DNA of 64,000 bases from Nitrospinota bacterium (GTDB lineage: Bacteria; Nitrospinota; Nitrospinia; UBA9942), in contig JACQBS010000051.1 in the NCBI GenBank assembly GCA_016194325.1, positions 7,855-71,854 on the forward strand, in the 5' to 3' direction. Below the pieces are notes generated by a model that was not told the DNA's origin, searched no databases, and worked only from the letters and a program-made list of their open reading frames with translations. Positions 4,003 through 60,868 of this stretch are shown here, piece after piece (the stretch's first letter is position 1; each line of letters starts with the position of its first letter). A program made the translations under genes and the position numbers.

Positions 4003-4290
4003 ATGAAACGAATGATTTTAATATTATGTTTCTGTATCCTGTTTTTAATTCTCCATATCCCGCTAATCCCGTTTTACAGCATAACGGGACAGGTCTATTC
4101 TGAGATAAAAAAACCTGCATTGGGGACAGAGATAAAACCTGATTGCAAGGAATGTCACAGCAGGAATGCGACGATAAGGGGGAGTGGAAAACCTGCTATA
4201 CCTGGCCAGCCTATGAAGGGGGATGGTAAACCTACCCCACCTCCAGACCACATCAGGAAAGATAAGAGGAAAAATAAAGGGCAGCAGTAA
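4003..4290 (+). CDS. Small secreted mono-haem (CXXCH) protein, hypothetical
   Basis: GGGAGG RBS 8 nt upstream of the ATG. Hydrophobic N-terminus MILILCFCILFLILHIPLI. Single CKECH motif. Lys/Pro-rich tail. Confidence 0.5.
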   Translation: MKRMILILCFCILFLILHIPLIPFYSITGQVYSEIKKPALGTEIKPDCKECHSRNATIRGSGKPAIPGQPMKGDGKPTPPPDHIRKDKRKNKGQQ

Positions 4291-4310
4291 ATAGGAAATT
4301 ATAAAAACTT

Positions 4311-4451
4311 GCCACAGAGTCACGGAGATTTCTTTAATTTATAGTACAGGAATTTAAATGTTGAGATTGCTTCACCTTCGGTTCGCAATGACAAACAAAA
4401 TTAATAGCAATCTAATTTATTTATTTCTCTGTGCCTCTGTGTCTCTGTGGC
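4311..4451 (+). repeat. Tandem-unit hairpin (CACAGAG/CTCTGTG family) spanning the start codon of the next gene
   Basis: The left arm gccacagagtcacggagat (4311..4329) is complementary in about 13/15 terminal positions to the right arm tctctgtgcctctgtgtctctgtggc (4426..4451). ATG 4388 lies in the loop. The right arm encodes LCASVSLWL of the signal peptide. Confidence 0.8.
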
Positions 4452-5122
4452 TTATTTTATTCTCAAGCATTGGTTGTAAAACAGCTACCCAAAAGGATGA
4501 AGTAAAAACAGATGTAGAAGTAATAGATAAAGAAGGGTTTGGTTCTGTCCCTTTTTTAGAAACTGGTAAACTTGCCTTCACAACAGAGGAGGCAAAGGCA
4601 AAGATGGAGGTGAGGTTGAAGAGAGAAAAAGAGGAACTTGAAAGAAAAAAAGGTGAATTTCAAGCCCAGGCAACAACCCGATGGACAACTGATTTCTGGA
4701 TACCCCCTCCAACGAATCCTCCGCTGGTATCCGCCCTTAGGGAATTTCCAAAAGATTCATTCGGTTATCCTGATTGGAGTATGGCTGTCAAAAGGGGTAT
4801 TATAAATCCGTTAGATTCAATTAAAGGGGAAAGAGTTAAAAAGGAGCAGGAAGAATTTAATCAAGATATAATATTTCAGATAAACGATAGGATGATGGCA
4901 AATGTCCGTTTCCCTCACAGTGTACATAATTACTGGCTTTCATGTAAGGTCTGTCATCCTGCTATCTTTATAGCAAAAAGAGGCGGCAATGATTTTGGAA
5001 TGACAGATATCTGGAATGGTAAATTTTGCGGGCGGTGTCATGGTAAGGTTTCGTATGCCCCTAAGGGATTTGAAAACTGCATCCGCTGTCACAGTGTGAG
5101 GAGAGAGAAGGTTGGTTTTTAG
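4388..5122 (+). CDS. Tri-haem c7-type cytochrome domain lipoprotein
   Basis: C-terminal VRFPHSVHNYWLSCKVCHPAIF...MTDIWNGKFCGRCHGKV...FENCIRCHS matches the c(7)-type tri-haem domain pattern (FPH..H....C..CH...C..CH...C..CH). The N-terminus has lipobox-like LFSSIGC. The ORF opens at 4358; ATG 4388 is preferred. Confidence 0.75.
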   Translation: MTNKINSNLIYLFLCASVSLWLILFSSIGCKTATQKDEVKTDVEVIDKEGFGSVPFLETGKLAFTTEEAKAKMEVRLKREKEELERKKGEFQAQATTRWTTDFWIPPPTNPPLVSALREFPKDSFGYPDWSMAVKRGIINPLDSIKGERVKKEQEEFNQDIIFQINDRMMANVRFPHSVHNYWLSCKVCHPAIFIAKRGGNDFGMTDIWNGKFCGRCHGKVSYAPKGFENCIRCHSVRREKVGF

Positions 5123-5151
5123 TTTGTTCATGTATAGGAAATTATAAAATT

Positions 5152-5228
5152 AACCACAGGTGAACACAGGTAAACGCTGAAAATAAAAAAAATAAAATAA
5201 CTGTGTTAATCTGTGTTTATCTGTGGTT
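5152..5228 (+). repeat. Decamer-unit hairpin element (AACCACAG-GTGAACACAG / CTGTGTTTAT-CTGTGGTT), empty loop
   Basis: Left arm aaccacaggtgaacacaggtaaac; A-rich loop; right arm ctgtgttaatctgtgtttatctgtggtt. Preceded by the TAGGAAATTATAAAA box (5135..5150). Same family as 10908/11307 and 54092..54172. Confidence 0.85.
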
Positions 5229-5249
5229 TCATTAAGTTTTTGTTCTTTT

Positions 5250-6752
5250 ATGAGAAATTTTTTTTTAAGATTAGTTCATGATAGTTGTAAGTTGTTGGTT
5301 GTCAGTTGTTGGTTATTTCTCTGTGCCTCTGTGTCTCTGTGTCTATTAGTTTTTTGTTCAATCCCTGCCTATGCGGAAAAGGGCGATGCGGTGGCAGGAA
5401 AAGAGGTTTTTGAGAAAAGATGCAGGCAGTGCCATGGTGATACAGGTGAGGGGAATGGCCGCGTAGCGGACAAGGTATATCCTCCGCCGAGAAATTTCAC
5501 ATGGGGTCTTTTCAAATACAAGACATCCCCTATGGACCAACCTCCAAGAGATGAGGATTTGTTAAGAACGATAAATGATGGATTTGGCGAGGCATCTATG
5601 CCTCCGTGGAGGGACATAATGACTGAGAAGGAAAAGCGGGATGTTATAGCCTATGAAAAGAATTTTTCGGATATTTTTGAGACAGAGAAACCGCCTGAAG
5701 AGATTGATTATGGCGAGGAGATTCTTTACTCAGAACAGAGCGCCATTAAAGGTAAGGAGCTTTTTAAAAAGGCAGGGTGCCCTGAGTGTCATGGTGAAAA
5801 TGGAAAAGGAGATGGTATAAAAAAACTGAAGGATGTATGGGGCACAAGGGAATGGCCCAGAAACCTGACAAAGCCATGGACATACAATGGCGGCAATAAA
5901 CCAAAGAATATATTTGCAAGGATAACGGTAGGCATACCGGGAACACAAATGCCATCATTTGCAGATAAAAATAGTACAAAATATTTTACTGAAGAGGAAC
6001 GTTGGCATATAGTAAATTATGTGAGGTCTCTTGCAGATGAGACGAAGAGGGTTAAGAAAGAAGAAGAGGATAAGCCTTTAAAGGCGAAATATATAAATGG
6101 GGAAATTCCTATGGATGTCCATGCTGATGAATGGAAAGGAGCACCATTTAAGGCAATTAAATTATTCCCGCAGGACCAAACAAAGGAGAAGTTTTTTAAA
6201 CCCACTAATGATGGGATTAAATGGAGGGTCCTCTTTAATGATAAGGAGATCGCATTTTTGTTAGAGTGGGATGATAGGACAAAGAGTGTCCCCGGAGATG
6301 CAGAGGCAGAGAAGCTGAGCGAGGGGGAAGTGTTTGAGGATGCAGTTGCAATTCAGTTTCCCACGGCAATATTGCCCAAGATACCAATAAAAGAACAATT
6401 ACCGTCAATTGAACATGGGGATATGGAGTTTGGTGTAAATATCTGGTATTGGAGTAGTGGAACTACCTTGAGCCCCCAGATGACAAAGGTTAAATATTCG
6501 TATGGTATTAAATCAGAAAGGGTTGAGCCAGAAATTAAAGCAGGTTTAAGCGGGAAAGGTGAATATGCAGGTGGTATATGGAAGGTGATATTAAAAAGAG
6601 GGCTCAAGACTTCAAATCCGAAGGATGACCTCCAGTTTGAAACAGATAAACTTATACCTATAGCATTTGGAAACTGGGATGGCTCAAATGGAGGGAAGGG
6701 AAATAAACATACTGCAACCCCGTGGGATTGGTTAATATTGGAAAAAGGGTAA
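5250..6752 (+). CDS. Di-haem cytochrome c fused to an EB_dh-like (ethylbenzene dehydrogenase / DMSO-reductase type II haem-b subunit-like) domain
   Basis: Two class-I cytochrome c motifs: GKEVFEKRCRQCHGDTGEGNG and GKELFKKAGCPECHGENGKGDG. The C-terminal half (WKGAP...AFLLEWDD...DAVAIQFP...NIWYWSS...WKVILKR...IAFGNWDGSNG) resembles the EB_dh haem-binding domain. The signal peptide ends AYA-EK. The ORF opens at GTG 5223 inside the hairpin; ATG 5250 is preferred. Confidence 0.75.
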   Translation: MRNFFLRLVHDSCKLLVVSCWLFLCASVSLCLLVFCSIPAYAEKGDAVAGKEVFEKRCRQCHGDTGEGNGRVADKVYPPPRNFTWGLFKYKTSPMDQPPRDEDLLRTINDGFGEASMPPWRDIMTEKEKRDVIAYEKNFSDIFETEKPPEEIDYGEEILYSEQSAIKGKELFKKAGCPECHGENGKGDGIKKLKDVWGTREWPRNLTKPWTYNGGNKPKNIFARITVGIPGTQMPSFADKNSTKYFTEEERWHIVNYVRSLADETKRVKKEEEDKPLKAKYINGEIPMDVHADEWKGAPFKAIKLFPQDQTKEKFFKPTNDGIKWRVLFNDKEIAFLLEWDDRTKSVPGDAEAEKLSEGEVFEDAVAIQFPTAILPKIPIKEQLPSIEHGDMEFGVNIWYWSSGTTLSPQMTKVKYSYGIKSERVEPEIKAGLSGKGEYAGGIWKVILKRGLKTSNPKDDLQFETDKLIPIAFGNWDGSNGGKGNKHTATPWDWLILEKG

Positions 6753-6826
6753 TTGTCCCAAAATACTGCTAAACTCACATCTATCCGAAGTAAGTAATAA
6801 ATCCATTTGATTCCCAGGAATTTTGA

Positions 6827-6851
6827 TCCCACACATAATTTATATGTGGGA
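6827..6851. promoter_or_regulatory. 25-bp palindrome TCCCACACATAA-T-TTATATGTGGGA (candidate upstream activator site or terminator stem)
   Basis: Near-perfect inverted repeat (one mismatch) ~215 bp upstream of the sigma-54-like site at 7065 and ~75 nt downstream of stop 6752. It shares the CACATAAT core with the palindrome at 6891..6903. Confidence 0.35.
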
Positions 6852-6890
6852 TTTATCATGTGTTATATTCTACAGGTATTGGGTTAAATC

Positions 6891-6912
6891 GCACATAATG
6901 TGCATTTTTTTT
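6891..6912 (+). terminator. Weak candidate intrinsic terminator
   Basis: gcacataatgtgc forms a short stem (gcaca/tgtgc) followed by atttttttt. The stem is short and AT-rich, so support is low. Confidence 0.3.
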
Positions 6913-7064
6913 CCATTTTCATAGGGTATCTGCAACCTTTTTATGGAACAAAAGACCAATAATAATGTATTAAAATACCGAATAGAGCATAATGCCGCTG
7001 ATTTTTATATAACCCATTATAAATATTAGGTTTATCCTGATTGTAAATCTTTTCTTTATATGAA

Positions 7065-7080
7065 TGGTATAAAAAATGCA
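7065..7080 (+). promoter_or_regulatory. Candidate sigma-54 (-24/-12) promoter
   Basis: TGGTATaaaaaATGCA has the same GG-N10-GC spacing as the site at 1579. It lies 51 nt upstream of ATG 7131, at the end of the largest non-coding gap in the window. Confidence 0.4.
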
Positions 7081-7130
7081 ATATTATAGAAGTGAAATTT
7101 GTAAATATAGTAGAATCTTCTTAATTTTCA

Positions 7131-10100
7131 ATGGACAACGACATGAGTAACCACAAATACACAAGCAAAAAATTAAAGCGAAATAGGGAAACTCTCTATC
7201 TTCCTCCTTTCCCTATTTTTCTTTTTGTGTTTTTGTGGTTAATTATTTTTTCTAATATAGCATTTGCAGAGATTGCTCCAACCACTGTTTATCTATCCGA
7301 TATTAAGAGTGGTCTCTCTGTCCCTGTCCACATAGCTACAGATAAATGGGCGAATATCTATGTAACCGATCCCGGCAGGCAGCAGGTTCATAAATTTAAT
7401 GCCATCGGTGACCTCAAGTTAACGATTACCGGTATTACCGCTCCACTTGGAGTAGCAGTAGATAGTCAGGGGAATATATATATAGGTGATGACAGTAATA
7501 ACAATGTCTCGGTTTTTGATTCTGCCGGTAAGTTTCTTCGCAAATTAGGCTCAGGCAATGATGAGTTTATCATGCCCAATGATATTGTCATAGAGCCATC
7601 TTCAGGACGAATATATGTCACTGATTCAAAGGCAAACATAGTCAAGGTCTACAATCCTGATGGTTCTTTATCCTTTAACATCAGCGGTATTCTTTTTCCA
7701 ACAGGTATTCATATAGATTCTAAGAAGGGGGAGCTTCTTATAGGTGACCTTATAAACTCTCAGGTAAAGGTCTTTGACCTCTCCGGAAATTTTCTAAGAA
7801 GTTTTGGCTCAAGTGGTGTGGGTGCTGGTCTTATTAGCAGTCTGCAGGGGCTGACTGTGGATAAGAGTGGAAGGATATATGTTGTTGATGCCCATAAGGG
7901 ATGGGTTCAGGTCTTTGATTCAGCAGGGAATTACCTTTCCTTTATTGGAAGTGGTAATCTATATACACCGCTGGATGTGATGATAGACCCATACAATAGA
8001 CTTATTGTCTCATCATCTTCTGATGGGAAGCTATCCATTTACGGTATTGATGGTGGTAACCTCCCATCTAATTGGAATGAAAATTACCTGCCTGATACTG
8101 ATGGAGATGGGATGCCTGATGCATGGGAGGAGGCAAACGGACTCAATCCAAATCTTAATGATGCCTCCCTTGACCCTGATAATGACGGCCTTACAAATCT
8201 CAATGAGTATCTATCCGGCTCAGACCCCCACAATCCTGATACTGATGGAGATGGTTTAAAAGACGGTGTTGACCCAAGCCCGGGAATAGCTACTAATAAT
8301 AAACCATCAGCAAATGCCGGTCCTGATATGACATATGACCCGGGTATTATTACTCTTAATGGAAACGGCAGCAGTGACCCAAATTCCCTGTCCCTTAAGT
8401 ATACATGGACAGAGAGCGGGACGAATCCTGCAAATGTAACTCTTTCAGATAATGGGACAGTAACAGCAATTAAACCAACATTTATTGCTACAAAAGCTGG
8501 AGTTTATAAATTTACTCTCAAGGTTGCGAATAACTATTTTGAAAGTAATCCCGATGATGTTCTGATTACAATCAGGAATTTTACTCCAACAGCCTATGCA
8601 GGGTTGGACCAGACTGTCAGTGGTAATACACAGGTCAATATTAGTGGAGCAGGCAGTTTAGATGCAAATGGAGATGCACTAACATATAAGTGGACACAGG
8701 TTTCAGGCACTCAGGTGAGCCTTATTGGAGGAAGCACGAGAGACGCAAATTTTACCCCACAGAGCTCAGGGGTATATATCTTCAGGCTTATCGTGAGTGA
8801 TGGTGTCAATACCAGTGCACCTGATGAGATAAACATAACAGTCAACAGTTCCAATACTGTCCCTGTGGCAGATGCAGGTGTTGACCAGGTCGTTTATTTG
8901 CCTGCTACAGTAACCTTAAACGGTAATAGAAGCAGTGATGGTGATGGAGACCCATTGACATATAGTTGGAATCTCTTATCCGGGCCAAAGGCTGTTACAT
9001 TATCCAATGCCGCTAATAAAAACCCCACATGGACAACTGATACCCCGGGTATCTATACCTTTGCCCTGACTGTCTCCGATGGAAAGGATAATAGCATCTC
9101 TGATAGTGTAAATATTACTGTAAACGGCGCAAATCAGGTTCCTGTTGCAAATGCAGGCACGGATCAGAATGTAATACTCTATTCAACTGTTACCTTAGGG
9201 GGAGGGATGAGCTACGACACGGATAATTCCCCCTCTCCTCTTACATATAAATGGACACAGGTATTTGGAACAACTGTCTCTCTTAACAATTCCACCAGCA
9301 TGACCCCGACATTTGTTCCAATCCACGAAGATGTGCTTAGATTTCAGCTCACCGTTAGTGATGGGCTGAATACCAGTCTATACGATGAGGTTGAGATAAA
9401 GGTAGCAGGCAGTAACATACCCCCTGTGGCTAATGCAGGGAATGACCAAACGGGTATAGTAGGCATATTTATCAAACTTAACGGAACAGGGAGTATGGAT
9501 AAGGATGGGGATACGCTGACCTATCAGTGGACACAGGTGAGAGGTGCATCAGTAATACTCTCCAACATATATTCAAGAGAGCCTACCTTCACACCTTCAC
9601 AACCGGGTATCTATGAATTTATGCTATTAGTGAAAGACAATATTACTTCAAGCTCCGATACAGTTATGATAACAGTTAATAGTCCGCAGAACTCCCTGCC
9701 GCTTGCCAATGCAGGAATAGACAGGATTGTGGAGGTTGATTCTACTGTCCTGCTTAATGGTGGAGGGAGTGATGCAGATGGAGACCCGCTAACCTACAGA
9801 TGGCAATTTGTAAGCGGGCCTGCCTCTATTATTTTATCCAGCACTTCAGCAGCAAATCCAGCTTTTGTGCCAAAGATTATAGGAAGCTACATATTCAGGC
9901 TTACTGTAAATGATACCAAAGGGGATAGCAGTCCTGATGATGTTCAGATTTCAGTGGCTCCTAAAGGTGCCATTGTATTCAATATTAAAAATGGGAAAGA
10001 CAATCTCCTTTCAGCAACCGATTTGACGATATATCCATGGGTTGACCTCTTGATTCCTAACGGGTCTGTAAATGGAAACATGGATATAGCAATTGCAGAA

Positions 10101-10883
10101 GAGAAGAATCCACCCCCAACACGGGTAGGAATAAAGATGATGAATACTGCAGTTGATTTTGCCCCTGATGGCGCAAAATTTAATTCAAAGGTTAAAGTAA
10201 AGATTCCATATACCCTGTCCAGATTATCTGAGGCGGGTATAAGTGACCCTAAGACACTTAAAGTATATACATATAAAAAGGAGACGCAAGTGTGGGAGGA
10301 GATTACCCCTACCAATATCAATGTAGAGAGTCAATATGTTGAATTTGAGACAGACCACTTTTCTATCTATGCACTTGGAAGCCCTGAAAAGACTGGAGGT
10401 TATGGAGATACAGGCGGGTCAGGGGGTTCAGGTGGGTCAAATGGTGGAGGTTCAGGCGGGTCAGGGGGGTCGGGTGGAACAGGTGGAACAGGTGGAACAG
10501 GCGGTGGAAATAGCAATACAGGAGGGCAGATGAGCAGTGGTTCATCTGGTGGCGGGGGCGGTGGTGGTTGTTTCATTGCCACAGCCTCATACGGCTCTTA
10601 TCTCCATCCCCATGTAAAGATATTCAGGGACTTCAGAGACCAGTATCTACTTCCCTATGCTCCGGGGAGATACTTTGTAAGCACCTATTACAAATATAGT
10701 CCTCCTATTGCTGATATAATTGCAGAGCATTGGACACTGAGGGTTTTGACAAGGATTATTCTCTTTCCATTTCTGTTAATTGCCGCATTTTTTGTGAAAG
10801 CTACAGCAATACAAAAGATATTTATTATTATAATAATTGTTGCTATAATGCACAGAAAAAAAATAATGAATTATGAATTTTGA
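7131..10883 (+). CDS. Secreted NHL-repeat beta-propeller / TSP3-like Ca-binding / 7x PKD-like Ig domain protein with Gly-rich linker and CFI-box-like C-terminal anchor
   Basis: - Six NHL-type blades ([75 protein letters not shown], ...).
- [12 protein letters not shown]...[13 protein letters not shown]...[12 protein letters not shown] repeats.
- Seven ~90-aa repeats of the form ANAG.DQ....V.L.G..S.D.DGD.LTY.W.
- A (GGS/GGT)n linker.
- C-terminal [27 protein letters not shown] plus a TM helix. Confidence 0.85.
7149..7240 (+). repeat. Nested hairpin encoding the signal peptide of the NHL/PKD protein
   Basis: Outer arms are aaccacaaatacacaagcaaaaa (7149..7171) and tttttgtgtttttgtggtt (7222..7240). 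Inner arms aaatagggaa (7181..7190) and ttccctattt (7209..7218) are perfectly complementary. The translation is [14 protein letters not shown]...[13 protein letters not shown]. Confidence 0.8.
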
Positions 10884-10907
10884 ATTAAAAGATTAAGGAA
10901 ATAATGA

Positions 10908-11335
10908 AACCACAGATAAACACAGATGAACACAGAAAAAGAATTCCTTTACAAAGAATTAACCGGGGAAATAATAGAGGCATCATATAATGTTCATAAT
11001 AGTCTGGGTTGTGGGTTACTTGAAAAGGTATATGAGAATTCACTTATATGGGAGATAGAATTAATGGGGAGAAAAGTTTCTTCACAAAGAGAGTTCAAAG
11101 TAATTTATCGTAAGAAAGAGGTTGGAATATATTATGCAGATTTAGTTGTAGAGGATAAGGTGATAGTTGAAGTGAAATCGGTAGAAAGGATAGATGATAT
11201 TCATCGTGCACAATTGTTAAACTATCTGAGAATATCTGGCTTAAGGGTTGGGTTGATTATAAACTTTGCCAGATCTAAATTAGAATATGAGAGATTGGTA
11301 GTTTAACCTGTGTTTATCTGTGTTCATCTGTGGTT
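10908..11335 (+). repeat. Inverted decamer-repeat arms bracketing the GxxExxY gene (gene-in-loop hairpin cassette)
   Basis: The left arm aaccacagataaacacagatgaacacaga (10908..10936) contains the ATG. The right arm cctgtgtttatctgtgttcatctgtggtt (11307..11335) starts 1 nt after the stop. The arms are complementary, with two decamer units swapped in order. Confidence 0.85.
10926..11306 (+). CDS. GxxExxY protein (PD-(D/E)XK nuclease superfamily)
   Basis: GLLEKVY is the eponymous G-x-x-E-x-x-Y motif. Length 126 aa, with the typical ...YYADLVVEDKVIVEVKS...HRAQLLNYL... core. Confidence 0.85.
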   Translation: MNTEKEFLYKELTGEIIEASYNVHNSLGCGLLEKVYENSLIWEIELMGRKVSSQREFKVIYRKKEVGIYYADLVVEDKVIVEVKSVERIDDIHRAQLLNYLRISGLRVGLIINFARSKLEYERLVV

Positions 11336-11391
11336 AATGCATAATTAAGGTAATTAGAAAATGGAAATTCTTAAAGGAGGAATACACAAAA

Positions 11392-14300
11392 GTGAAGAAC
11401 CTGTTCAGTAGGGACCAAGGAGAAAAAGTAAAAAGGAAGCCTGTCTGCCCAACAGGTAGAAAGGTATGGTTGGGGGTTACACTTGCACTTATACTTACAC
11501 TTACACTTACACTTTTTAAAGCACAAGGGGCAATTGACCCGCCTCATTATGACACAAGCACGACAAGCCCATTTTATTGTAGCGACTGTCATAAAGAGAG
11601 GACAGAATCAGATGTCCCGGGACTCTGTATGAGCTGCCACAACCCTGCCGGTAGGGCAAAGGCAAAGCCATTTGCCAGAACTGACCAGTCAACAATGGGG
11701 CAGGGAGTGGTTGGAGAGGACACTAAAGGGACCACTCACAGGTTTGATTCTGAAGGCTTGAAATATGTCAAGCTGTGGAAACCAAATAATAGCACGGGAA
11801 AGATAAAGATTGCAGGGGGCTCCATGTATTCAGGTGATTTTAGCACACAAAATGAAATGGAATATGAGTTTGAGATTGTTAACCCAGGGGATGTGGGTGC
11901 GGCAACCTTTAAATACCGTTGCCGCACAAGGAGTAAGCCTCAGCCAACCAGTTCTACCAACCCATTTAATACACCCGTATGGGACCGTGATGCAGACTGG
12001 AGCGGCTGGACATCTGCTTACACTACAGCAGCAAGCGTCTCATTAAACGACTCAATCTGCGGCGGCGATAAAGGTATCTCCCTATCCTTTGAGAATGGTT
12101 CAGGGAGCCCCAACTCCTTTGATGCAGGAACCGGAGGCAGGGTTTATGTAAAACTCCTAAACCAGCCGAGTAATGACAATATGAAATTAAGAGTGATGAA
12201 TAACAAAATCAACTGCTCAGTCTGCCACAATCAGCATTCTATGCAGCTTGACCGCCCCTACCTGAGGGCAGGTAATGTGGGAAATGCACTCTGCAAGCAC
12301 TGCCATGATGACAGGGATAGGAGTCATTATATGCAGGAGATGGGGACTGCTGATGATGGAACTGGGGATAGTTCCAATCAGACCACACTTCAGTTGGTGG
12401 ATATATCAAAGAACTGGACAGTAAACCAGTGGGTTGGAAAGCAAGTCTATTTCCAGAAGAACTTCAGGGGTGTGCAGGCGGCAGTAGATAATGAGGAAAA
12501 AAATCTTACAGGGACTTTGACCTTTACGCAGGGCTCTGCAACAGTAACGGGTGTAGGGACATTATTTTCAACAGAGATAAGCTCCCTGCAATTTATAAGG
12601 CTCTCATCATCCTCCAAATGGTATCCTGTAACATCTATAGGAACAAATACCTCATTAACCCTTTCAATACCATTTGAGGAAGCCACTGTTACGGGTAATG
12701 CCATGACTTCATCCTTCGCTGGTTTTTATCGTAAGATTACCTCCAATACTTCAAACACACTTGTTCTGGATGGCGCCTTAAATGCCAAAATTGATAATGG
12801 TCTCAGATACAGGATTGTAGATACTAATAATTACGGCAGTCATCCGGTTGGTATTAAATACTCACAGATGGATTTTGATACCCGCTTCAATTCTGATATA
12901 AAACCCCTGCCGCTTGATGACAATGGAACACCATCGGATACAAGTGATGACACTGTTCAGTGCATGACCTGCCATAGTCCGCATTTTACACATTCAGTAG
13001 GAACAGAAGGTGGTGCTGCAACATCAGGGACCACCACATCCCTTACAGATACAACAAAGAGTTGGACAGCAAATTCATTGGTAGGATACGAATTAAGGAT
13101 AAGAAATGAATGGACATCGGGGACATCCAATCAGAATCCGAACTGGCGAAAGAGGAGGTTTATCACCTCAAATACAGCGAATAAAGTTGAATGGCTGGAC
13201 CCACTCACCATCAGGAGTAACCCAAATGACAGTTCTGTGATGATTGACAGCCCTCCATCTGCGGGTGATGTTTATGAGATTGTTAATACCAGCGGGACCA
13301 ACCTGACCAACGGAATCGGTGATGGGTATATCTTAAGAAAGCCGAATGGTTATTCAAATGGGTATATACGGAAATATCAAAATATTGATGATGATAAAGT
13401 AATCTGTAAGACCTGCCATAAATATAAAAACCATTTTGGCGATGAAACTGCCGGTGGGTATGCCAGAAGCTGCATGGATTGTCATACACCGCATAATACA
13501 ACAAACAGATTCCTTTTGAGAGAGGTAATCAATAACCGTGAAGTCCGTATAAGACCGGGTGATAACTATGTAAACTCCTCCCGCACAGGCGTCTGTCAGG
13601 TCTGTCATACACAGACAAAACACTGGAGAAACGATGGGTCGGAGCCTCAGGCTCATTATGCCGAAGGGTGTCCTCAGTGCCACCAGCATGATAGTGAGGA
13701 GAGGAGCTGGATTTATATATGTAAAACATGTCATGGATACCCGCCTGTCCCAAAGGGAACTATTGTGGATAAAAAGGGTAATATACACACCAACATCAAT
13801 GATTCTATTTGTACCAACACCAGTGACCCTAATTATGCCGGTCCTTGTGCTGAGTATAATACCTTCAATCAAAATATACCTCATTCATCCTACCGTATTG
13901 AGGATTACGATGGCGGAGGCGGCGCACATCTTGTCCATGTGGTTGGGGCATTACAACAATTTGAATGTAAAATCTGCCACGGACATATGGGTTATGGGAA
14001 TGAGCATGGCGGCAGTGTGGGCAGAAAAACCCCGGACAGAAACAATATTACCTTTAATTTCCAGCTTGATTACAGTTTCAACGAGCGATTAGAGACAAAA
14101 CTTGGGTATCAGACAATAGACCCGCCTGTCTATCCGAAAATGATGGGTGTAGAGGTGGGGACATCGGCTACTTATATGAATCGTGCCGATGCCACAAATG
14201 GTTATGGACCCGGGAAAAAGCATATTGGTTCTGGTGCTACAAGTAACGGTGGGAACAACGAAGATGCTACTACACCGAGTATACTTGGCAGGGCGGTTAC

Positions 14301-16639: not shown

Positions 16640-16761
16640 AGCAATGAGCAATGAGTGCTAAGCGATGAGTAAAAACTTATTGCTAATCACACATTATGAA
16701 ATTATGATTCGCAATTTATTATTTACATTGCTCATTGCTCATTGCTTATCACTCATTGCTT
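16640..16761 (+). repeat. Octamer-unit hairpin (GCAATGAG/CTCATTGC) with the gene start codon in its loop
   Basis: The left arm agcaatgagcaatgagtgctaagcgatgagt pairs with the 3' part of the right arm (ctcattgcttatcactcattgct) in about 21/23 positions. The loop contains gaaattATGATTCGCAATTT (ATG 16704). The right arm encodes LLIAHCLSLIAYA. Confidence 0.8.
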
Positions 16762-17659: not shown

Positions 17660-18697
17660 ATGATTCGTAAATTATTACTTAAAACAGTGTCAGTGAATAG
17701 TGTCAGTGACAGGAAAAAAATACTAACATTGATACTTACACTTACACTTACACTGACACTGTCACTTGCATCAGCAAGTGATATGCTCCTCATCCCTGCC
17801 GGAGAATTTATTATGGGGAGCGGGGCTGTTCAGGGAACAGACCCTTACACTGACACTCACACTTTTAAAGAGGGGATTGACTATGGAGTGGATGAGATTC
17901 CACAGAGGAAGGTTTTTGTCAAAGACTTTTATATTGACAGATTTGAAGTAACAAATGCCGAATACAAAGAATATCTTAAATATCTCATTAAGAACAGGGT
18001 GAGGCTTCCATTTTATGAGGATATAGGTATCCCTATCCCGGAGGATTGGAGATATCTAAGAAGCAGTGTCAAAGAGTCAGAGAGTCAAAGTGTCAAAGTA
18101 AAAAATACTGATACTGACACTGACACTTATACTTTTAAAGAAGGCATGGAATATCATCCTGTAAGTGATGTGGATTGGTATATGGCAAATAGTTATTGTC
18201 AATGGAAAGGCAAGAGATTACCTACAGAAAATGAGTGGGAGAAGGCTGCAAGGGGGACAGACGGCAGGCTCTATCCATGGGGGAATGAAGAGAATAAAGG
18301 ATATGCGAATACCAGAAAAAGCAGTGTCAAAGAGTCAGAGAGTCAAAGTGTCAAAGTAAAAAATACTGACACTGACACTAACACTGACACTGGCACTGTG
18401 GCGGCAGGCTTTTTTAAAAAAGATGTTAGTCCTTATGGTGTCCATGATATGGGGGGGAATGTGGCTGAATGGACATCATCTTTATATCGTCCATATCCGG
18501 GAAGTCCTGTGGCAGAAAGAGAGGCATTTAAGAGAGAGTTCTATGTTGTCAGGGGCGGGTCCTATTTAATTAATGCCCATGAATCGGCAAGGGCATCGGC
18601 GAGATACTATATGCTCCCGACCCGTATGCCAAGGGCAGCAGATGCCTGGCATGGTGACGGGATGGTGGGGTTCAGATGTGCAAAAGATAAAGAATAG
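17660..18697 (+). CDS. Secreted FGE-sulfatase-fold protein carrying two in-frame hairpin-repeat insertions
   Basis: The leader is MIRKLLLKTVSVNSVSDRKKILTLILTLTLTLTLSLASA. FGE-family motifs: LLIPAGEFIMGS, RFEVTNAEYKEY, WYMANSYCQWKGKRLPTENEWEKAARGTDGRLYPWGN, YGVHDMGGNVAEWT, GFRCAKD. GGSYLINAHESARASARYY replaces the FGE motif GGS.LCH.SYC..YR, so both Cys are lost. The listed ORF start at 17513 is read-through of element 17537..17643. Confidence 0.8.
   Translation: MIRKLLLKTVSVNSVSDRKKILTLILTLTLTLTLSLASASDMLLIPAGEFIMGSGAVQGTDPYTDTHTFKEGIDYGVDEIPQRKVFVKDFYIDRFEVTNAEYKEYLKYLIKNRVRLPFYEDIGIPIPEDWRYLRSSVKESESQSVKVKNTDTDTDTYTFKEGMEYHPVSDVDWYMANSYCQWKGKRLPTENEWEKAARGTDGRLYPWGNEENKGYANTRKSSVKESESQSVKVKNTDTDTNTDTGTVAAGFFKKDVSPYGVHDMGGNVAEWTSSLYRPYPGSPVAEREAFKREFYVVRGGSYLINAHESARASARYYMLPTRMPRAADAWHGDGMVGFRCAKDKE
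18065..18136 (+). repeat. In-frame hairpin insertion 1 in FGE-like CDS (AGTCAAAG arm / A-loop / CTGACAC arm)
   Basis: Sequence: agtgtcaaagagtcagagagtcaaagtgtcaaag-taaaaaat-actgatactgacactgacacttatactttt. It is 72 nt (24 codons) and encodes SVKESESQSVKVKNTDTDTDTYTF. Confidence 0.85.
18323..18398 (+). repeat. In-frame hairpin insertion 2 in FGE-like CDS
   Basis: The left arm and loop (agcagtgtcaaagagtcagagagtcaaagtgtcaaagtaaaaaatactga) are identical to insertion 1, which lies 258 nt upstream. The right arm is actgacactgacactaacactgacactggcactg. It encodes SVKESESQSVKVKNTDTDTNTDTGT. Confidence 0.85.
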
Positions 18698-19160
18698 TAT
18701 CAAAGTGTCAGAGTATCAGAGTGTCAGAGTTTTTTACTTTGACACTATATAAAAGTGTCAGAGGTAATATGGAAGAGAAAAAGGGTTACAAAAAACTGAG
18801 GGTATGGGAAAAGGCACATCAACTTGCAATGGAAATTTATAATACTACTAAAATATTTCCAAAAGAAGAGTTGTATGGATTAACTTCACAGATTAGAAGA
18901 GCAGCGTTTTCAGTTCCTTTAAATATAGTAGAGGGACATGCAAGTATTAGCAAGAAAGAATTTTTGAATTTTCTTAATATGGCAAATAGGTCCCTTGTTG
19001 AGACAGAATATCTGTTAGAGATAGTGAGAGAATTAAGCTTTTTAAATGAACCCGAGTATCAAAGGTTAGAGAAAATACGCAGTGAAGTTGCAGTTATATT
19101 AAACGCTTTTCGAAAAAGTATCAAACTTTGATACTTTGACACTCTGACACTTTGACACTT
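18696..19160 (+). repeat. Inverted octamer-repeat arms bracketing the four-helix-bundle gene (gene-in-loop hairpin cassette)
   Basis: The left arm is agtatcaaagtgtcagagtatcagagtgtcagag (18696..18729), followed by the mini-hairpin ctttgacact/aagtgtcagag (18737..18762). The right arm ctttgatactttgacactctgacactttgacactt (19126..19160) overlaps the stop codon. Confidence 0.85.
18769..19131 (+). CDS. Four-helix-bundle protein (23S rRNA intervening-sequence protein family; Avd-like fold)
   Basis: MEEKKGYKKLRVWEKAHQLAMEIYNTTKIFPKEELYGLTSQIRRAAFSVPLNIVEGHASISKKEFLNFLNMANRSLVETEYLLEI matches the family pattern (L.VW.KA....iY..t..FPk.E.ygL.sQirRAa.S...NI.EG). The ORF opens at GTG 18721 in the repeat; ATG 18769 after GAGGT is preferred. 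Confidence 0.85.
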   Translation: MEEKKGYKKLRVWEKAHQLAMEIYNTTKIFPKEELYGLTSQIRRAAFSVPLNIVEGHASISKKEFLNFLNMANRSLVETEYLLEIVRELSFLNEPEYQRLEKIRSEVAVILNAFRKSIKL

Positions 19161-19168
19161 TAAAACTT

Positions 19169-42135: not shown

Positions 42136-44403
42136 ATGAACAGAAAAAAAATAGTGTCAGTGAACAGTGTCAGTGTCAGTAAAAAAAACAGTGTTAGCAA
42201 AAGGATACTAATACTGATACTAATACTGACACTAACACTGACACTTGAAGATGCCTTTGCGGACTCAAAGGGGAGACCCGACCACATGTCAAAGGAGATA
42301 ATAAAGACTAAAGAAGTAGTCCCTGTTCCTCCCGATATTCAGGTGCCTTACTCGGTCAAGAGGATTAGTGACGGCAGTTCCATTGATTACCATCCGGAGT
42401 TTAGCCATGATGGAAAACAGATTGTATTTATTAGAAAAATAGATAATGATGAAAATATGAAAAAGGGGGAATTCTGGCACAAGACACCTTATTCCCTGAA
42501 TCTATGGCTCATGGATTCAGATGGCAATAACAGAAGACAGTTAACATCAGGGGATGTGATGGACTTTGCTCCAAGGTTTACACCTGATGGAAAAAGGGTC
42601 ATTTTTGTCTCCAATCGCAGGGATGGCAGATGGGATATATGGTCAATAGATATTGATGGTTCAAACCTTAACAGAATTACAGAGACAGAAGGGAATACAG
42701 GGCTATGGGAAAGGTCACACTATCCTTTCCCTACGCCAGATGGTAAGGAGATGATTTTCGTAATCTATAAAAAATCCCACGGAAGTGTATGGCTTATGGA
42801 TATGAAAAGCAGAAATATAAGAAGAATAACTTCAGGGGGATTTGGAGATGACTTTCCGATGATGTCCCCTGATGGTAAAGAGATTGTCTTCAAAAGCACG
42901 AGACAGGGAAATGGAGATGTATGGTCAATAGATAGAACAGGAAAAAATTACAAAAGATTGACCTATGAGGATTACCCGGAATTTTACCCTGCATGGAGTC
43001 CGGATGGGACTAAAATATCCTATGTCACCAACAAAGGGGGTATCTTTGATATATGGATAATGAATAGGGATGGTAAACACAAAAAGAAGCTGACAAAATT
43101 CCTCTCGCAGGGGGCATGGGGAAAAAGGTTTGATTATAACGACCTTGTAGAGACCGGATATTATCATGTCTCATGGCATCCGGATGGAACAAAGCTTGCC
43201 CTGACCATCTGGGATCCTGATAAAAAAGAAAGTTATTTGACAACACTCGACTTTGGAAAGGATATTGGCAGGGTAATGGATAGCCTGCCTGATGAAAAGG
43301 AGACCCTTCCTGATTACACCCTTATTGGAGAGAAAGATATTACCGGCGGTGGAAGCTGGGATGATTTTGGACCATCTTTCAGCCCCGATGGAAAAACAAT
43401 AGCCTTTGCTTCTAATAGAAAGGGGAACTGGGATATCTGGAGTATCAGCGCAGAGGGTGAGGGATTGAAACAGATGACGGAGGACACTGGTAGTGAGCTT
43501 GCCCCCGTATTCAGTCCTGATGGTAAAGAGATAGCATTTTTAAAAGAAATTGGACAGGATATACAGGATGGACAGGAAAAAAATATAAATCCAGTAAATC
43601 CTGTTAATCCTGTCAAAAAATACTATTCATTATGGCTCATGAATAGTGATGGGAGTGGTGCAAGGCAGATTACTGAGGGTATTAAGGCTATATCTTATCC
43701 TGCATGGAATCCAGATAGTAAAGAGATTGCCTTTGTAGCAAAAGGAGATAAAGGTCCTGAGATACAATTAATCCCCCTTAATAAAGGGGGGCAGGAGGTT
43801 GTTACTGTGAGCCGTGTTATTTCTATATGGGACACAGAGAAGCCTAATCCTTCTATGTTTCCTTTTGCAAAGGATACAAAGGATGAGGAGTTTACTCCTG
43901 AGGAAATGGCAAAGATGAAAAAACTATTCCCGAATGCAAAAGTCGGGATGGGTGGATTGACCCCCTTTACAAAGGGTGAAACCATAGATGTTCCTTATCC
44001 ATTGAAAGAGTTTCTCTACCGTGTAGATTATAATGCCGCAGGTGACAAAATCATATTTGAGTCTAATAAAAGCGGGAATATAGATATATGGTCGGTAAAA
44101 AAAGATGGGACAGAGATGACTCGTATTACAAAAGAAAGTGGACCGCATCTAAATCCTGTCTTTAGCCCTGATAATAAAAGAATCGCCTATGCCCGCAGAA
44201 AATTGGAGTTAAGCTCATATAATGAAGTAAATTATAACATCTGGGTTGCCGATGCGCATACCGGTGAAGAAATGCCTATTAACGGTGAGGAGCAGACAGA
44301 CTGGAATCCTGCATGGAGTCCGGATGGAAAAAAAATCGCCTATGTTACTAATCGTTCAGGGGAATTTAAGCATTATAATATATGGATGCTGTATTTAAAA
44401 TAG
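42136..44403 (+). CDS. Secreted TolB-like PD40 beta-propeller repeat protein
   Basis: The leader is MNRKKIVSVNSVSVSKKNSVSKRILILILILTLTLTLEDAFA, followed by PD40 blades throughout. The tail is NRSGEFKHYNIWMLYLK. Confidence 0.85.
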   Translation: MNRKKIVSVNSVSVSKKNSVSKRILILILILTLTLTLEDAFADSKGRPDHMSKEIIKTKEVVPVPPDIQVPYSVKRISDGSSIDYHPEFSHDGKQIVFIRKIDNDENMKKGEFWHKTPYSLNLWLMDSDGNNRRQLTSGDVMDFAPRFTPDGKRVIFVSNRRDGRWDIWSIDIDGSNLNRITETEGNTGLWERSHYPFPTPDGKEMIFVIYKKSHGSVWLMDMKSRNIRRITSGGFGDDFPMMSPDGKEIVFKSTRQGNGDVWSIDRTGKNYKRLTYEDYPEFYPAWSPDGTKISYVTNKGGIFDIWIMNRDGKHKKKLTKFLSQGAWGKRFDYNDLVETGYYHVSWHPDGTKLALTIWDPDKKESYLTTLDFGKDIGRVMDSLPDEKETLPDYTLIGEKDITGGGSWDDFGPSFSPDGKTIAFASNRKGNWDIWSISAEGEGLKQMTEDTGSELAPVFSPDGKEIAFLKEIGQDIQDGQEKNINPVNPVNPVKKYYSLWLMNSDGSGARQITEGIKAISYPAWNPDSKEIAFVAKGDKGPEIQLIPLNKGGQEVVTVSRVISIWDTEKPNPSMFPFAKDTKDEEFTPEEMAKMKKLFPNAKVGMGGLTPFTKGETIDVPYPLKEFLYRVDYNAAGDKIIFESNKSGNIDIWSVKKDGTEMTRITKESGPHLNPVFSPDNKRIAYARRKLELSSYNEVNYNIWVADAHTGEEMPINGEEQTDWNPAWSPDGKKIAYVTNRSGEFKHYNIWMLYLK
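43552..43615 (+). repeat. Complete hairpin element inserted in frame in TolB-like paralogue 3 (GGACAGGAT / AATCCTGT units)
   Basis: Sequence: ggacaggatatacaggatggacagga-aaaaaatat-aaatccagtaaatcctgttaatcctgtc. The arms are reverse-complementary. It encodes GQDIQDGQEKNINPVNPVNPV at the same loop that carries other repeats in the three paralogues. Confidence 0.9.
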
Positions 44404-44460
44404 TGAAAGTGTAAGTGAAAGTGTAAGTGAAAAGAGTTAACTTACACTTACACTTGCACT
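44402..44460 (+). repeat. Intergenic hexamer/heptamer hairpin (AGTGTAAGTGAAAG / CTTACACTTACA) between TolB-like genes 3 and 4
   Basis: Sequence: agtgaaagtgtaagtgaaagtgtaagtgaaaag-agttaa-cttacacttacacttgcact. It overlaps stop codon 44401..44403 and ends 13 nt before ATG 44474. Confidence 0.85.
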
Positions 44461-44473
44461 ATAAGGAGGAGCC

Positions 44474-46649: not shown

Positions 46650-47607
<958 letters not shown>

Positions 47608-54091: not shown

Positions 54092-54172
54092 AACCACAGA
54101 TAAACACAGATGGACGCAGATATTTTTTAAAATCTTTTTTCTATCTGTGTTTATCCGTGTTCATCTGTGGTT
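54092..54172 (+). repeat. Decamer-unit hairpin element (AACCACAGATAAACACAG family), empty loop
   Basis: The left arm aaccacagataaacacagatggacgcagata and the right arm tatctgtgtttatccgtgttcatctgtggtt are 26/31 complementary, with a 19-nt AT loop. It is followed by the reverse complement of the AGGAAATTATAAAA box (54175..54189). Confidence 0.9.
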
Positions 54173-59560: not shown

Positions 59561-60533
59561 TCAAGTTGGCTCAGCCAAGAAACTTGTCCCGTTATGTCTT
59601 AAAACGGGATGGGCATGCGGCACTCTTTTCTTTATTCTATTATTTTTAACAGGATGTGTAACTAATCAGAAGGAGGGATATTCGCTAAAAAATAGGATTC
59701 GTGCTGAATCAGAGGCATTGGTAAAAAAACAGCAGGATGATGAAAGGCAAAGGAAGGCAATAGTACTATTCAATAACGGATTTCAGCTTATAAATAATGA
59801 TCCGATAGGTGCAAATGCACTTTATCGTGAGGGCATAATACTTATGCCGGAGAGATGGGAGGCTTATTATAATCTCGGCATTACTTATATGAAGCTTTAC
59901 GACCACGAGAGGGCAATAAAGGAATTCTCTAATGCGTTAAAATACAATGCACCACAATCTAAGGTGTATAATGCCATTGGAGTAACATACCAATCTATGG
60001 GAAGAAACGGAGATGCAATAAAGTATTTTAAAAAGGCACTCTCTTTAGAAAAGTCGCCAATTGTAATTATGAATATTGCAAACATTTATCAGGATATGGG
60101 GCAGAAAGAGGAATCAATAAAGCTCTATCATCAGATTGAGTTTGTAGATATTTCAAAATTACCCCTTCATAATAACATAGGCAGTCTGAAATATAAGATG
60201 GGCGATTTTAAAGGTGCCAGGGATGAGTTTAATATGGCGTTAGAAAAAGAAGGGGAAAATATACAGGTGCTTTATTATCAGGCACAGACTCTTCTGATGC
60301 TTGAAGAATATGAGAATGCCTTGAATGTTTATAAGAAAATAGCAGCCAAAAACTCTGCTGACCCTGAGCCTTACAGAAATATGGGTATAATATATGAGAT
60401 TTATCTTGGAGATATGGCAAGTGCATATGAGAATTATACTGCGTATATAAAAAACGGAGGAGAGAAGACTAAGGATATGGAATCATGGATAGAGGTGGTA
60501 AAGGTGAAAATGGTAAAGAAGGAGGGGCAATGA
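59532..60533 (+). CDS. TPR-repeat lipoprotein
   Basis: Lipobox LLFLTGC. TPR units: AYYNLGITYMKLYDHERAIKEFSNALKYNP.., VYNAIGVTYQSMGRNGDAIKYFKKALSLE, NIANIYQDMGQKEESIKLY, and others. It overlaps the upstream gene by 29 nt and the downstream start by ATGA. Confidence 0.7.
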   Translation: MLSRDTVKISQVGSAKKLVPLCLKTGWACGTLFFILLFLTGCVTNQKEGYSLKNRIRAESEALVKKQQDDERQRKAIVLFNNGFQLINNDPIGANALYREGIILMPERWEAYYNLGITYMKLYDHERAIKEFSNALKYNAPQSKVYNAIGVTYQSMGRNGDAIKYFKKALSLEKSPIVIMNIANIYQDMGQKEESIKLYHQIEFVDISKLPLHNNIGSLKYKMGDFKGARDEFNMALEKEGENIQVLYYQAQTLLMLEEYENALNVYKKIAAKNSADPEPYRNMGIIYEIYLGDMASAYENYTAYIKNGGEKTKDMESWIEVVKVKMVKKEGQ

Positions 60534-60868
60534 ACAGGAGACAGAAGTCAGAAGTCAGAAGTCAGAAGTCAGATTTTATGTTCTCTGTCCTCTGTCTTCT
60601 GTCCTCTGTCTTCTGTCTCCTGTTAATTATTACCCCTGCATATAGTGCCAATAAGGGGATAATGAGAGGAGATGAACCTGCAGTGGTTGAGCATATGATA
60701 AAGATAGAGGGGAGTGTTGAAAGGCCGAGGGTTATTTTTATTGTGCCGAGGTCAAAATTATGGAGAGACGATATTTTTAAAAAGAGTTTTATTGCGGATA
60801 TATTGAGACCTGTATATCCAAAACTTTCAATAAAGGAAGGGGGTCCCGATAAGGATTCAAGGAGGTAA
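60530..60868 (+). CDS. Small secreted hypothetical protein whose signal peptide is encoded by a 38-bp-stem hairpin
   Basis: AGGAGG RBS and an ATGA overlap with the upstream stop. The leader is MNRRQKSEVRSQKSDFMFSVLCLLSSVFCLLLIITPAYSA. The mature part has no recognisable domain. The ORF-track start at 60485 is inside the upstream gene. Confidence 0.55.
   Translation: MNRRQKSEVRSQKSDFMFSVLCLLSSVFCLLLIITPAYSANKGIMRGDEPAVVEHMIKIEGSVERPRVIFIVPRSKLWRDDIFKKSFIADILRPVYPKLSIKEGGPDKDSRR
60535..60622 (+). repeat. Hairpin (CAGAAGT)4 / (TCTGTCY)5 covering codons 2-31 of the CDS
   Basis: The left arm is caggagacagaagtcagaagtcagaagtcagaagtcag (60535..60572). The reverse complement of the right arm (60585..60622) is caggagacagaagacagaggacagaagacagaggacag. 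About 32/38 positions are complementary, and the loop is 12 nt. Confidence 0.9.

Follow-up and report, generated by a model that had tools for sequence, protein, structure and literature searches.

Short palindromic repeats lying in or beside coding sequences have been described in several bacterial systems. In-frame palindromic miniature inverted-repeat transposable elements (MITEs) include the Rickettsia palindromic elements (RPE) and the enterobacterial/Yersinia RU-1/RU-2 (YPAL) repeats (PMC2229807); in YPO1552, a MITE forms part of the predicted signal peptide (Delihas 2008, PMC2229807). Intervening sequences (IVS) of 23S rRNA, such as that of Coxiella burnetii, have terminal repeats of about 28 bp and an S23p/four-helix-bundle open reading frame (ORF), and are excised by RNase III (PMC4990558). 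In the opa genes of Neisseria, CTCTT pentamer repeats occupy the leader-peptide coding region (PMC3745409), and the repetitive extragenic palindromes and bacterial interspersed mosaic elements (REP/BIME) are high-copy extragenic palindromes served by REP-associated tyrosine transposases (RAYT) (PMC3733652). The present study concerns a nested hairpin at positions 7149-7240 of a 64-kb stretch of DNA from a Nitrospinota bacterium (contig JACQBS010000051.1; the whole stretch is called the window, and all positions refer to it). The hairpin lies in the leader of an NHL/PKD protein gene. With a probability of roughly 0.7, it is an in-frame palindromic repeat cassette placed between the start codon and the signal-peptide cleavage site, i.e. 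a mobile or recombining palindrome that has been tolerated or exapted by the gene. The cassette belongs to a diverse class of inverted repeats of this uncultured Nitrospinota lineage; it is translated through in-frame, and it is exchanged at a fixed site between close genomes.

The NHL/PKD gene is an ORF of 1250 aa on the + strand (7131..10883), in which six K319L-like PKD domains come after an NHL beta-propeller. Its signal-peptide coding region (7131..7268, +) has 46 codons, with cleavage predicted before E47 (AFA|E) to give a mature N-terminus EIAPT. The mature protein (7269..10883, +) consists of the NHL propeller and six PKD domains, a GS-linker, a 13-residue motif, and a hydrophobic tail. 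A Sec-type (signal peptidase I) signal was assessed by a positive n-region, an h-region of >=10 hydrophobic residues, and small residues at -3 and -1; the leader has a net charge of +3 in residues 1-20, a 12-residue h-core (Kyte-Doolittle maximum over 11 residues, 3.3), and the c-region A-F-A|E. The hairpin, which ORF translation places at codons 7-37 as the earlier note on this DNA had proposed, supplies both the basic n-region and the hydrophobic h-region, and the AFA|E site is outside it.

The hairpin sequence is AACCACAAATACACAAGCAAAAAATTAAAGCGAAATAGGGAAACTCTCTATCTTCCTCCTTTCCCTATTTTTCTTTTTGTGTTTTTGTGGTT, and both the nesting and the arms, including their translations into a basic 14-residue and a hydrophobic 13-residue peptide, are as the earlier note had described them. 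The outer arms are AACCACAAATACACAAGCAAAAA(A) at 7149..7172 (+) and TTTTCTTTTTGTGTTTTTGTGGTT at 7217..7240 (+), and are best read as three in-register octamers each, complementary at 20/24 positions with no gaps. The A-rich 5' arm reads AACCACAA ATACACAA GCAAAAAA and is translated as NHKYTSKK in the used frame; the T-rich 3' arm reads TTTTCTTT TTGTGTTT TTGTGGTT, or AACCACAA AAACACAA AAAGAAAA as its reverse complement, and is translated as FLFVFLW, the core of the h-region. No two octamer units of the window are identical. The inner arms, AAATAGGGAA at 7181..7190 (+) and TTCCCTATTT at 7209..7218 (+), are perfectly complementary. The apical loop (7192..7207, +), CTCTCTATCTTCCTCC, codes for part of TLYLPPFP; overall the loop is 16-44 nt and without an ORF. 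An inverted-repeat scan of the leader reported arms of 33 nt with 79% complementarity, and the arms begin with AACC/TAAC.

RNA folding, which the earlier note had suggested as a check, returned a single nested stem-loop for 7140-7250 with a minimum free energy (MFE) of -33.9 kcal/mol. Dinucleotide shuffles of the same segment averaged -14.1 +/- 3.0 kcal/mol, so that the hairpin has a z of -6.6, with 0/200 shuffles as low. The MFE helices pair 7148-7164 with 7225-7241 (outer) and 7180-7191 with 7208-7219 (inner, perfect). Since Lys/Asn codons are complementary to Phe/Leu codons, a stricter null was also applied, in which the peptide was fixed and synonymous codons were resampled by window usage. 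By this null the observed -34.7 kcal/mol compares with -21.9 +/- 4.9 kcal/mol (z -2.6; 4/500, p about 0.008), and by a codon-order shuffle the z is -4.7 (0/300). Therefore, the pairing goes beyond what a Lys(AAA)/Phe(TTT) composition provides, and the hairpin is real and above compositional expectation.

Orthologue DNA was collected from genome and metagenome scans and contig look-ups, at 96% to 74% amino-acid identity; the comparison data comprise the 64-kb window and about 180 fetched loci (L numbers below) rather than the whole source genome. One of them is Nitrospinota bacterium NC_groundwater_1752 (L003; JACRGN010000206), which aligns to window 4249-15442 with 97.2% identity over 10,227 columns outside four low-identity segments. 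Three of these segments are exactly inverted-repeat sites (5113-5223, 7150-7256, and 10849-11527), and the fourth is an indel of the Gly/Ser-linker. The segment 7150-7256, with 49% identity, is the sole low-identity segment at the 5' end of the NHL/PKD gene. The strain-variable cassette can be delimited at 7147..7252 (+), and it encloses the whole nested hairpin. On its left the window and L003 have the common flank ...TTCTTAATTTTCAATGGACAAMGACATGA (ATGGACAAMGAYATGA), and on its right GCATTTGCAGAG (AFA|E).

At least five leader forms, here called alleles A, B, C/C', D, and E, precede a common mature N-terminus APT..., all of them open, in-frame, and ending in a small-residue cleavage motif. 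Allele A is that of the window. Allele B (L003) is an unrelated palindrome of about 110 nt, compared with 106 nt in the window, composed of (GAAGACA)x5, TTTTCCGT, and (TCTCTGTY)n, with the leader peptide MDKDMKNMNEDRRQKTEDRRQIFRSLSSVLCSLFSVLCLLSSDVAFA|E. Allele C (L083/L084) contains a nested GATTAAAC/GTTTAATC palindrome, TTGCTCA x3, and TTGCTTCTTGTTTCTTGCTTC, and allele C' (L088) has TTGCTCA x11. Allele E (L001, L170-178) pairs ACAAGAAGTCAGAG x2 with CTTCTTG-type repeats. Allele D (L004/85/86/87) is an ordinary leader, MKLLSLSFIFLLFSAATVTG, with a Shine-Dalgarno-like AGGA ahead of it and no hairpin; the hairpin is thus not required by the gene. The ATGGACAAMGAYATGA flank is kept in L003 and L083/84, the upstream flank of L088 differs from that of the window, and the window shares the AFA c-region with L003, L083/84, and L088. 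Overall, the cassette does not extend into the conserved c-region S-N/D-I/V-A-F-A|E, and orthologous sites with the same flanks are filled, or differently filled, by these alleles. The leader is therefore replaced in L003, L083/84, L088, and L001 by other repeat cassettes, and in L004/85/86/87 by an ordinary leader, in favour of the earlier note, which had asked for this comparison; a conserved leader peptide with synonymous changes that break the pairing, which that note had named as evidence to the contrary, was seen in none of the orthologues, whose n- and h-regions are replaced wholesale. An assembly artefact was considered for these alleles and rejected, since independent assemblies are identical (L083=L084; L004=L085=L086; L170-L174, L176-L178). 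By the codon-aware null, pairing is significant in alleles A, B, and E (z -2.6, -3.9, and -2.9, respectively) and not in C and C' (z -0.7 and -0.8), and allele D, without a hairpin, has a z of +0.6.

A natural variant was found among the allele E loci. L175 (1854), as compared with L170-L178 (1767), has lost one 7-nt unit of the 3' arm, which results in a frameshift, and its gene call takes as its start an ATG that lies in the hairpin loop after a GAGG (MLSCLFVFASCFLLLSSSAVAG|E, 1205 aa vs 1234 aa). Read from the sequence, this is a case of natural slippage with a predicted alternative start, by which a hydrophobic leader would still be encoded.

The cassettes that fill the site in sister genomes are members of multicopy families that are also present in the window. 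Allele B matches window 60539-60609 with 87% identity over 71 nt, including both arms and the loop, and it also matches 46664-46694 (31/31); alleles C and C' match 16726-16761. In the window, further members of these families lie both between genes and in the leaders of other genes, and the leaders of neighbouring genes likewise exchange cassettes between relatives while a lipobox or AXA site is retained. In total, at least 15 inverted repeats with arms of 6-10-nt tandem units were found in the window by scanning and inspection, and in 15/15 of them, non-coding ones included, the purine-rich arm comes first on the coding strand. Two carry cargo genes, GxxExxY and 23S_rRNA_IVP, of kinds typical for 23S rRNA IVS, and most are cargo-less hairpins. 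In at least 13/31 genes the h-region is made of repeat units, e.g. LTLTLT..., LFLCASVSL, and FSVLCLLSSVF. At 4310/4435, 16640/16728, 44403/44541, and 19199-19225, a 5' arm lies upstream of the ribosome-binding site (RBS) and a 3'-arm copy encodes the h-region.

Allele A itself had been called a unique sequence, and this holds in the wider data: no second copy of the cassette is present in the window or the fetched loci. A pattern search with AACCACAAANACACAA over all fetched loci gave no match, and a protein search with the leader and first NHL blade as the query had a single hit, the allele-C protein P0241. The earlier note had also linked the leader to the intergenic elements at 5152-5228, 10908-11335, and 54092-54172 through common AACCACA...TGTGGTT termini. 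The termini are indeed common to all four; AACCACA has 17 sites in the window, and 8/17 are the ends of these four hairpins. For the inverted-repeat class as a whole the link is solid, because the sister cassettes belong to repeat families found elsewhere in the window. The tie to the decamer family (AACCACAGATAAACACAGATGAACACAG...) in particular is limited to the terminal AACCACA(A) and an ACACA core. In both, the terminal unit is distinguished by CC in place of AC; the leader has AAMCACAA octamers, whereas the decamer arms have about three ACACAGATNA units with a 10-nt period. The local alignment score between the leader and the decamer arms is 20 (shuffle p about 0.01), and 21/31,776 window 24-mers score as high. 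This resemblance, with p about 1e-3 to 1e-2, is suggestive. Membership of the decamer family was rejected because of the octamer units and because a profile of decamer arms misses the leader; allele A is read as belonging to the same class with a shared terminal unit, and is probably related to the decamer family without being a member of it.

In all three frames the 3' arm of the leader hairpin is free of stop codons and hydrophobic (e.g. FFLCFCG), and the 5' arm is free of stop codons and polar or basic (e.g. PQIHKQK). The decamer and heptamer families have the same frame-independent pattern, with stop-free, hydrophobic 3' arms. This asymmetry of the arm peptides is due to the genetic code, by way of U/C vs A/G at codon position 2: a pyrimidine- and U-rich strand places U or C there and encodes hydrophobic or small residues, and its purine-rich complement places A or G there and encodes charged or polar residues. 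Therefore, an inverted repeat with its purine-rich arm first is a ready-made n-region plus h-region in any frame.

A possible scheme for the origin of the leader hairpin can be described as follows. Cassettes may reach the site by insertion in the manner of a transposon, or repeat copies may recombine or undergo gene conversion with one another. The cassettes may persist in leaders since any peptide that is charged and then hydrophobic would serve as a Sec signal, and the hairpin would therefore be a tolerated or exapted selfish sequence rather than a needed structure. As a side effect, the mRNA stem of -34 kcal/mol, which starts 12-18 nt past the ATG at 7131, would probably slow early elongation or provide RNase III with a site. 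Allele A, with degenerate units and a single copy, may be an old or diverged copy, probably decamer-related via the AACCACA terminal unit.

When this scheme is compared with the described systems, the in-frame MITEs and RPE are the closest. In both cases an ORF contains a short stem-loop repeat that is translated in-frame and tolerated, a repeat-derived hydrophobic stretch provides signal-peptide or transmembrane character, and sites are filled or empty among relatives. The leader hairpin has the terminal inverted repeats of a MITE, folding to a long stem-loop (24-33-nt arms); its copy number, a single one in the window and about 180 loci, is not that of a MITE, although the sister alleles B, C, and C' are multicopy. 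It also differs in that its arms are tandem arrays of 6-10-nt units, the same few sites are common to many unrelated families that replace one another at a single site, the palindrome supplies the whole n- and h-region of a conserved, clearly functional exported protein, and the pattern recurs in a large fraction of neighbouring genes; a TA target duplication or transposase partner was not seen here. What is new relative to the in-frame MITEs and RPE is thus the tandem-unit arms, the competition of families for one site, the full replacement of the n- and h-regions, the frequency among neighbours, and the tie to IVS-type cargo.

The likeness to IVS concerns the cargo-bearing relatives, not the leader hairpin. 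They have terminal repeats of about 28 nt around a 23S_rRNA_IVP ORF of roughly 120 aa (18696-19167) or a GxxExxY ORF (10908-11335), and their distribution is sporadic and horizontally mobile. Unlike IVS, the elements of the window lie between or ahead of protein-coding genes and not in 23S rRNA helices (25 or 45), and the leader hairpin is cargo-less and translated; RNase III excision in a coding leader would destroy the message. The opa genes are similar in that the hydrophobic core of the signal peptide comes from short, pyrimidine-rich tandem repeats and a change in unit number shifts the frame (here in L175). The opa repeats, however, are non-palindromic and lack a complementary purine arm, whereas the units of the window allele are degenerate and alleles differ here by replacement of the whole cassette. 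REP/BIME are also palindromes between co-directional genes, with an orientation bias and proposed roles in mRNA stability. In contrast to these, the arms of the leader hairpin have no GTAG/CGTC head, and the elements of the window reach into coding leaders, with PD-(D/E)XK or four-helix-bundle proteins as cargo; no RAYT was identified, and no search was aimed at RAYT genes.

Several points weigh against a repeat cassette that was acquired and tolerated. Allele A is single-copy in these data, and its status as a repeat element would follow from its architecture, its position, and the terminal motif. An nhmmer profile of six decamer arms recovers those six and reaches the leader only with E=700 at 7150-7158. 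No target-site duplication or transposase was identified for the cassette; a possible TGA is present on both cassette sides in L003 and L083 (caTGA|...|TGAtgtt), with TGA and TAA in the window, which is too short to judge. The signal-peptide function is predicted by rules (charge, h-length, and AXA). Some of the flank combinations of the GxxExxY element resemble cross-joins and could be real recombination or assembly chimeras. Finally, three independent alleles keep strong hairpins, and all of the elements are oriented alike; either observation would fit selection on RNA structure as well. An alternative, unlikely in our judgement, is that the hairpin exists chiefly as a cis-regulatory RNA element under selection, with h-region codons recruited to pair with upstream sequence. 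On the mRNAs of exported proteins it would act as a brake on translation, a stabiliser of the 5' end, an RNase III processing site, or a switch between alternative pairings. In its favour, this position holds three unrelated alleles whose folding is far stronger than codon-aware nulls give, all 15 inverted repeats share their orientation relative to transcription even where non-coding, and RNase III acts on IVS stems that are built in the same way (PMC4990558). Several loci even resemble a switch, in that a single 5' arm is accompanied by two alternative 3' arms, one on each side of the RBS and start codon (44403/44437/44541, 18696/19132/19199, and L003 6667/6701/6825). A selected structure is harder to reconcile with the unstructured ordinary leader of L004/85/86/87, with alleles C and C', which are not significantly structured, and with arms that are replaced wholesale and do not co-vary. 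Moreover, the stem does not include the start codon at 7131, and an Rfam scan of the whole window at gathering thresholds matched no family and found no rRNA.

The exchange of cassettes also allows a bolder extension, possible but doubtful, in which the palindromes are mobile leader modules, IVS-like elements that have left rRNA and specialised on the 5' junctions of exported genes. They would spread by hairpin or cruciform homing, or by gene conversion, through the loop-encoded GxxExxY PD-(D/E)XK nuclease or four-helix-bundle (Avd-like) proteins; the code asymmetry would preserve export, and slippage together with in-loop starts would give start-switching or phase variation of the surface proteome. 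Phase variation could also be the primary matter, with palindromy secondary, if the leader were an opa-like contingency locus in which slippage of 7-10-nt units shifts the frame and switches expression or start use. The perfect non-triplet units of sister alleles, GAAGACA x5 (L003) and TTGCTCA x11 (L088), the difference of exactly one 7-nt unit between L175 and L170-178, and the opa precedent (PMC3745409) speak for it; yet it is very unlikely here, as the degenerate octamers of the window make slippage in allele A improbable, the hexamer (LT)n repeats cannot shift the frame, and all assembled alleles are in-frame with a single slippage variant seen. That the complementarity is a by-product of Lys/Asn vs Phe/Leu codons in an A+T-rich gene start, with a chance match to AACCACA, is hardly credible. 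Peptide-fixed resamples do average -21.9 kcal/mol, with 4/500 reaching the observed value, and the decamer-arm profile does miss the leader arms; nevertheless, the codon-aware p is about 0.008, neither the perfect 10-bp inner palindrome nor the in-register octamers consist of A/T runs, the end of the stem falls on the terminal 7-mer, and the segment is the exact piece that true palindromic repeats replace in sister genomes.

If the leader hairpin is indeed a tolerated in-frame repeat cassette, it bears on how secretion signals originate. Signal peptides are usually regarded as parts of a gene that change by slow drift. Here, a conserved surface protein and many of its exported neighbours take their n- and h-regions from interchangeable palindromes, which differ between genomes that are otherwise 97% identical. 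Were this general, it would mean that the genetic code gives selfish hairpin DNA a simple pre-adaptation to the role of secretion signal, and it would extend the little-understood IVS-type elements with GxxExxY and 23S_rRNA_IVP cargo from rRNA to mRNA 5' ends. Gene callers, signal-peptide predictors, and metagenome assemblers would then be expected to misbehave at such sites. The natural set of at least five leader forms on one mature protein is a tractable one for studying the effects of mRNA structure and leader on export.

As to the expression of the NHL/PKD gene, in-frame ATGs are found at 7131 and 7143, and no Shine-Dalgarno motif was seen upstream of either (7100-7145 inspected), unlike the neighbouring genes at 11392, 42136, 44474, and 60530, which carry AGGAGG-type sites. 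A start inside or after the hairpin was rejected, since the only in-frame candidates, GTG 7227 and TTG 7233, have neither an n-region nor a Shine-Dalgarno motif. A scan of 6700-7350 found fewer promoter-like sites than in shuffles and is hence uninformative; in the same scan the leader hairpin does not resemble a terminator, despite the T-run behind it. Upstream of the gene, at 6891-6903, a hairpin with a T-run does look like a terminator, which suggests that the gene starts its own transcription unit. Exact-product look-ups returned no record for the NHL/PKD, GxxExxY, and 23S_rRNA_IVP proteins of the window, nor for P0001. At the C-terminus of the NHL/PKD protein (10380-10883), a Gly/Ser/Thr-rich linker of 9-nt repeats is indel-variable relative to L003, and the 13-residue motif and hydrophobic tail that follow it resemble a C-terminal sorting or anchor signal, as a putative assignment.

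Within the decamer family, cargo-bearing, internally deleted, and cargo-less forms were found, and the cargo is a nuclease-fold GxxExxY protein, not a known transposase. The cargo-bearing element (10908..11335, +; 428 nt) has 28-nt arms with 93% complementarity and a GxxExxY/PDDEXK_3 gene at 10926-11306 (TIGR04256, 1e-40). At the orthologous site it is absent in L003 and internally deleted in L087, with the deletion lying between short direct repeats TATATGRGAGAT, and it is multicopy in relatives. The L087 element shows a route by which cargo-less hairpins can arise: cargo elements decay to short hairpins through internal deletion. In related metagenome contigs (L154-L161), the GxxExxY element is found at 97-98% identity beside other flanks. 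In the window (10887-11352), conserved sequence reaches about 20 nt to the left of the arm of this element (GATTAAGGAAANAATGA). One cargo-less decamer-arm hairpin (5152..5228, +), with termini AACCACAG...CTGTGGTT, lies 21 nt upstream of the start of a cytochrome c/EB_dh gene, and a different decamer-type inverted repeat occupies this site in L003. The other (54092..54172, +) lies 19 nt upstream of gene 54192.

The second cargo-bearing element (18696..19167, +) has (AGTGTCAGAGT)-type arms and a 23S_rRNA_IVP gene at 18769-19131 whose product is a four-helix-bundle, Avd-like protein (2e-36). An additional copy of its 3' arm, at 19199-19225, encodes the h-region of the next gene (19169). At the junction upstream of this gene, which encodes 5498 aa, the 23S_rRNA_IVP element is present in the window, and a GxxExxY/decamer element in L155/L157/L158. 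Therefore, different cargo elements occupy the same junction. Complete hairpins inside leaders are found at 60529..60628 (+), with heptamer arms (GAAGTCA)n/(TCTGTCY)n in the leader of ORF 60530 (MNRRQKSEVRSQKSDFMFSVLCLLSSVFCLL...), and at 42165..42240 (+) in that of ORF 42136 (...SVNSVSVSKKNSVSKRILILILILTLTLTL...).

One purine-rich 5' arm is accompanied by two 3'-arm copies at 44403-44582, 18696-19225, and L003 6667-6862. One copy forms a compact hairpin upstream of the RBS, and the other lies 60-130 nt further on in the coding h-region; this architecture would permit alternative pairings that enclose or free the RBS and start codon. The hexamers (ACTGAC/ACTTAC)n are read as LTLTLT... in the leaders of 36440, 40089, 42136, 44474, 46650, 48526, 11392, and 19169, and their number differs among relatives, from 3 to 5 units in orthologues of the multihaem cytochrome 11392. 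A second small palindrome, CCCCCTTAATAAAGGGGG / GGGGGTT...AACCCCC (peptide ...PLNKGGLRGL...), occurs at 44496-44535, 47028-47075, and in the leader of 48526, nested in the loops or leaders of other elements in parallel with the inner AAATAGGGAA/TTCCCTATTT hairpin. Directly upstream of a Uma2-family gene (35873-36403) lies a nested inverted repeat whose units are of the ACGAAT type (35695-35828), and Uma2, a putative restriction endonuclease fold, is another small nuclease-fold gene adjoining a repeat palindrome. The neighbourhood at 4358-16635 and beyond encodes exported multihaem cytochromes, cytochrome c/EB_dh, PD40/DPPIV beta-propellers, an FGE-sulfatase, and the 5498-aa protein, with all genes on the + strand and a GC skew that is positive throughout. 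The closest genomes are groundwater metagenome-assembled genomes of 'Nitrospinae/Nitrospinota bacterium'.

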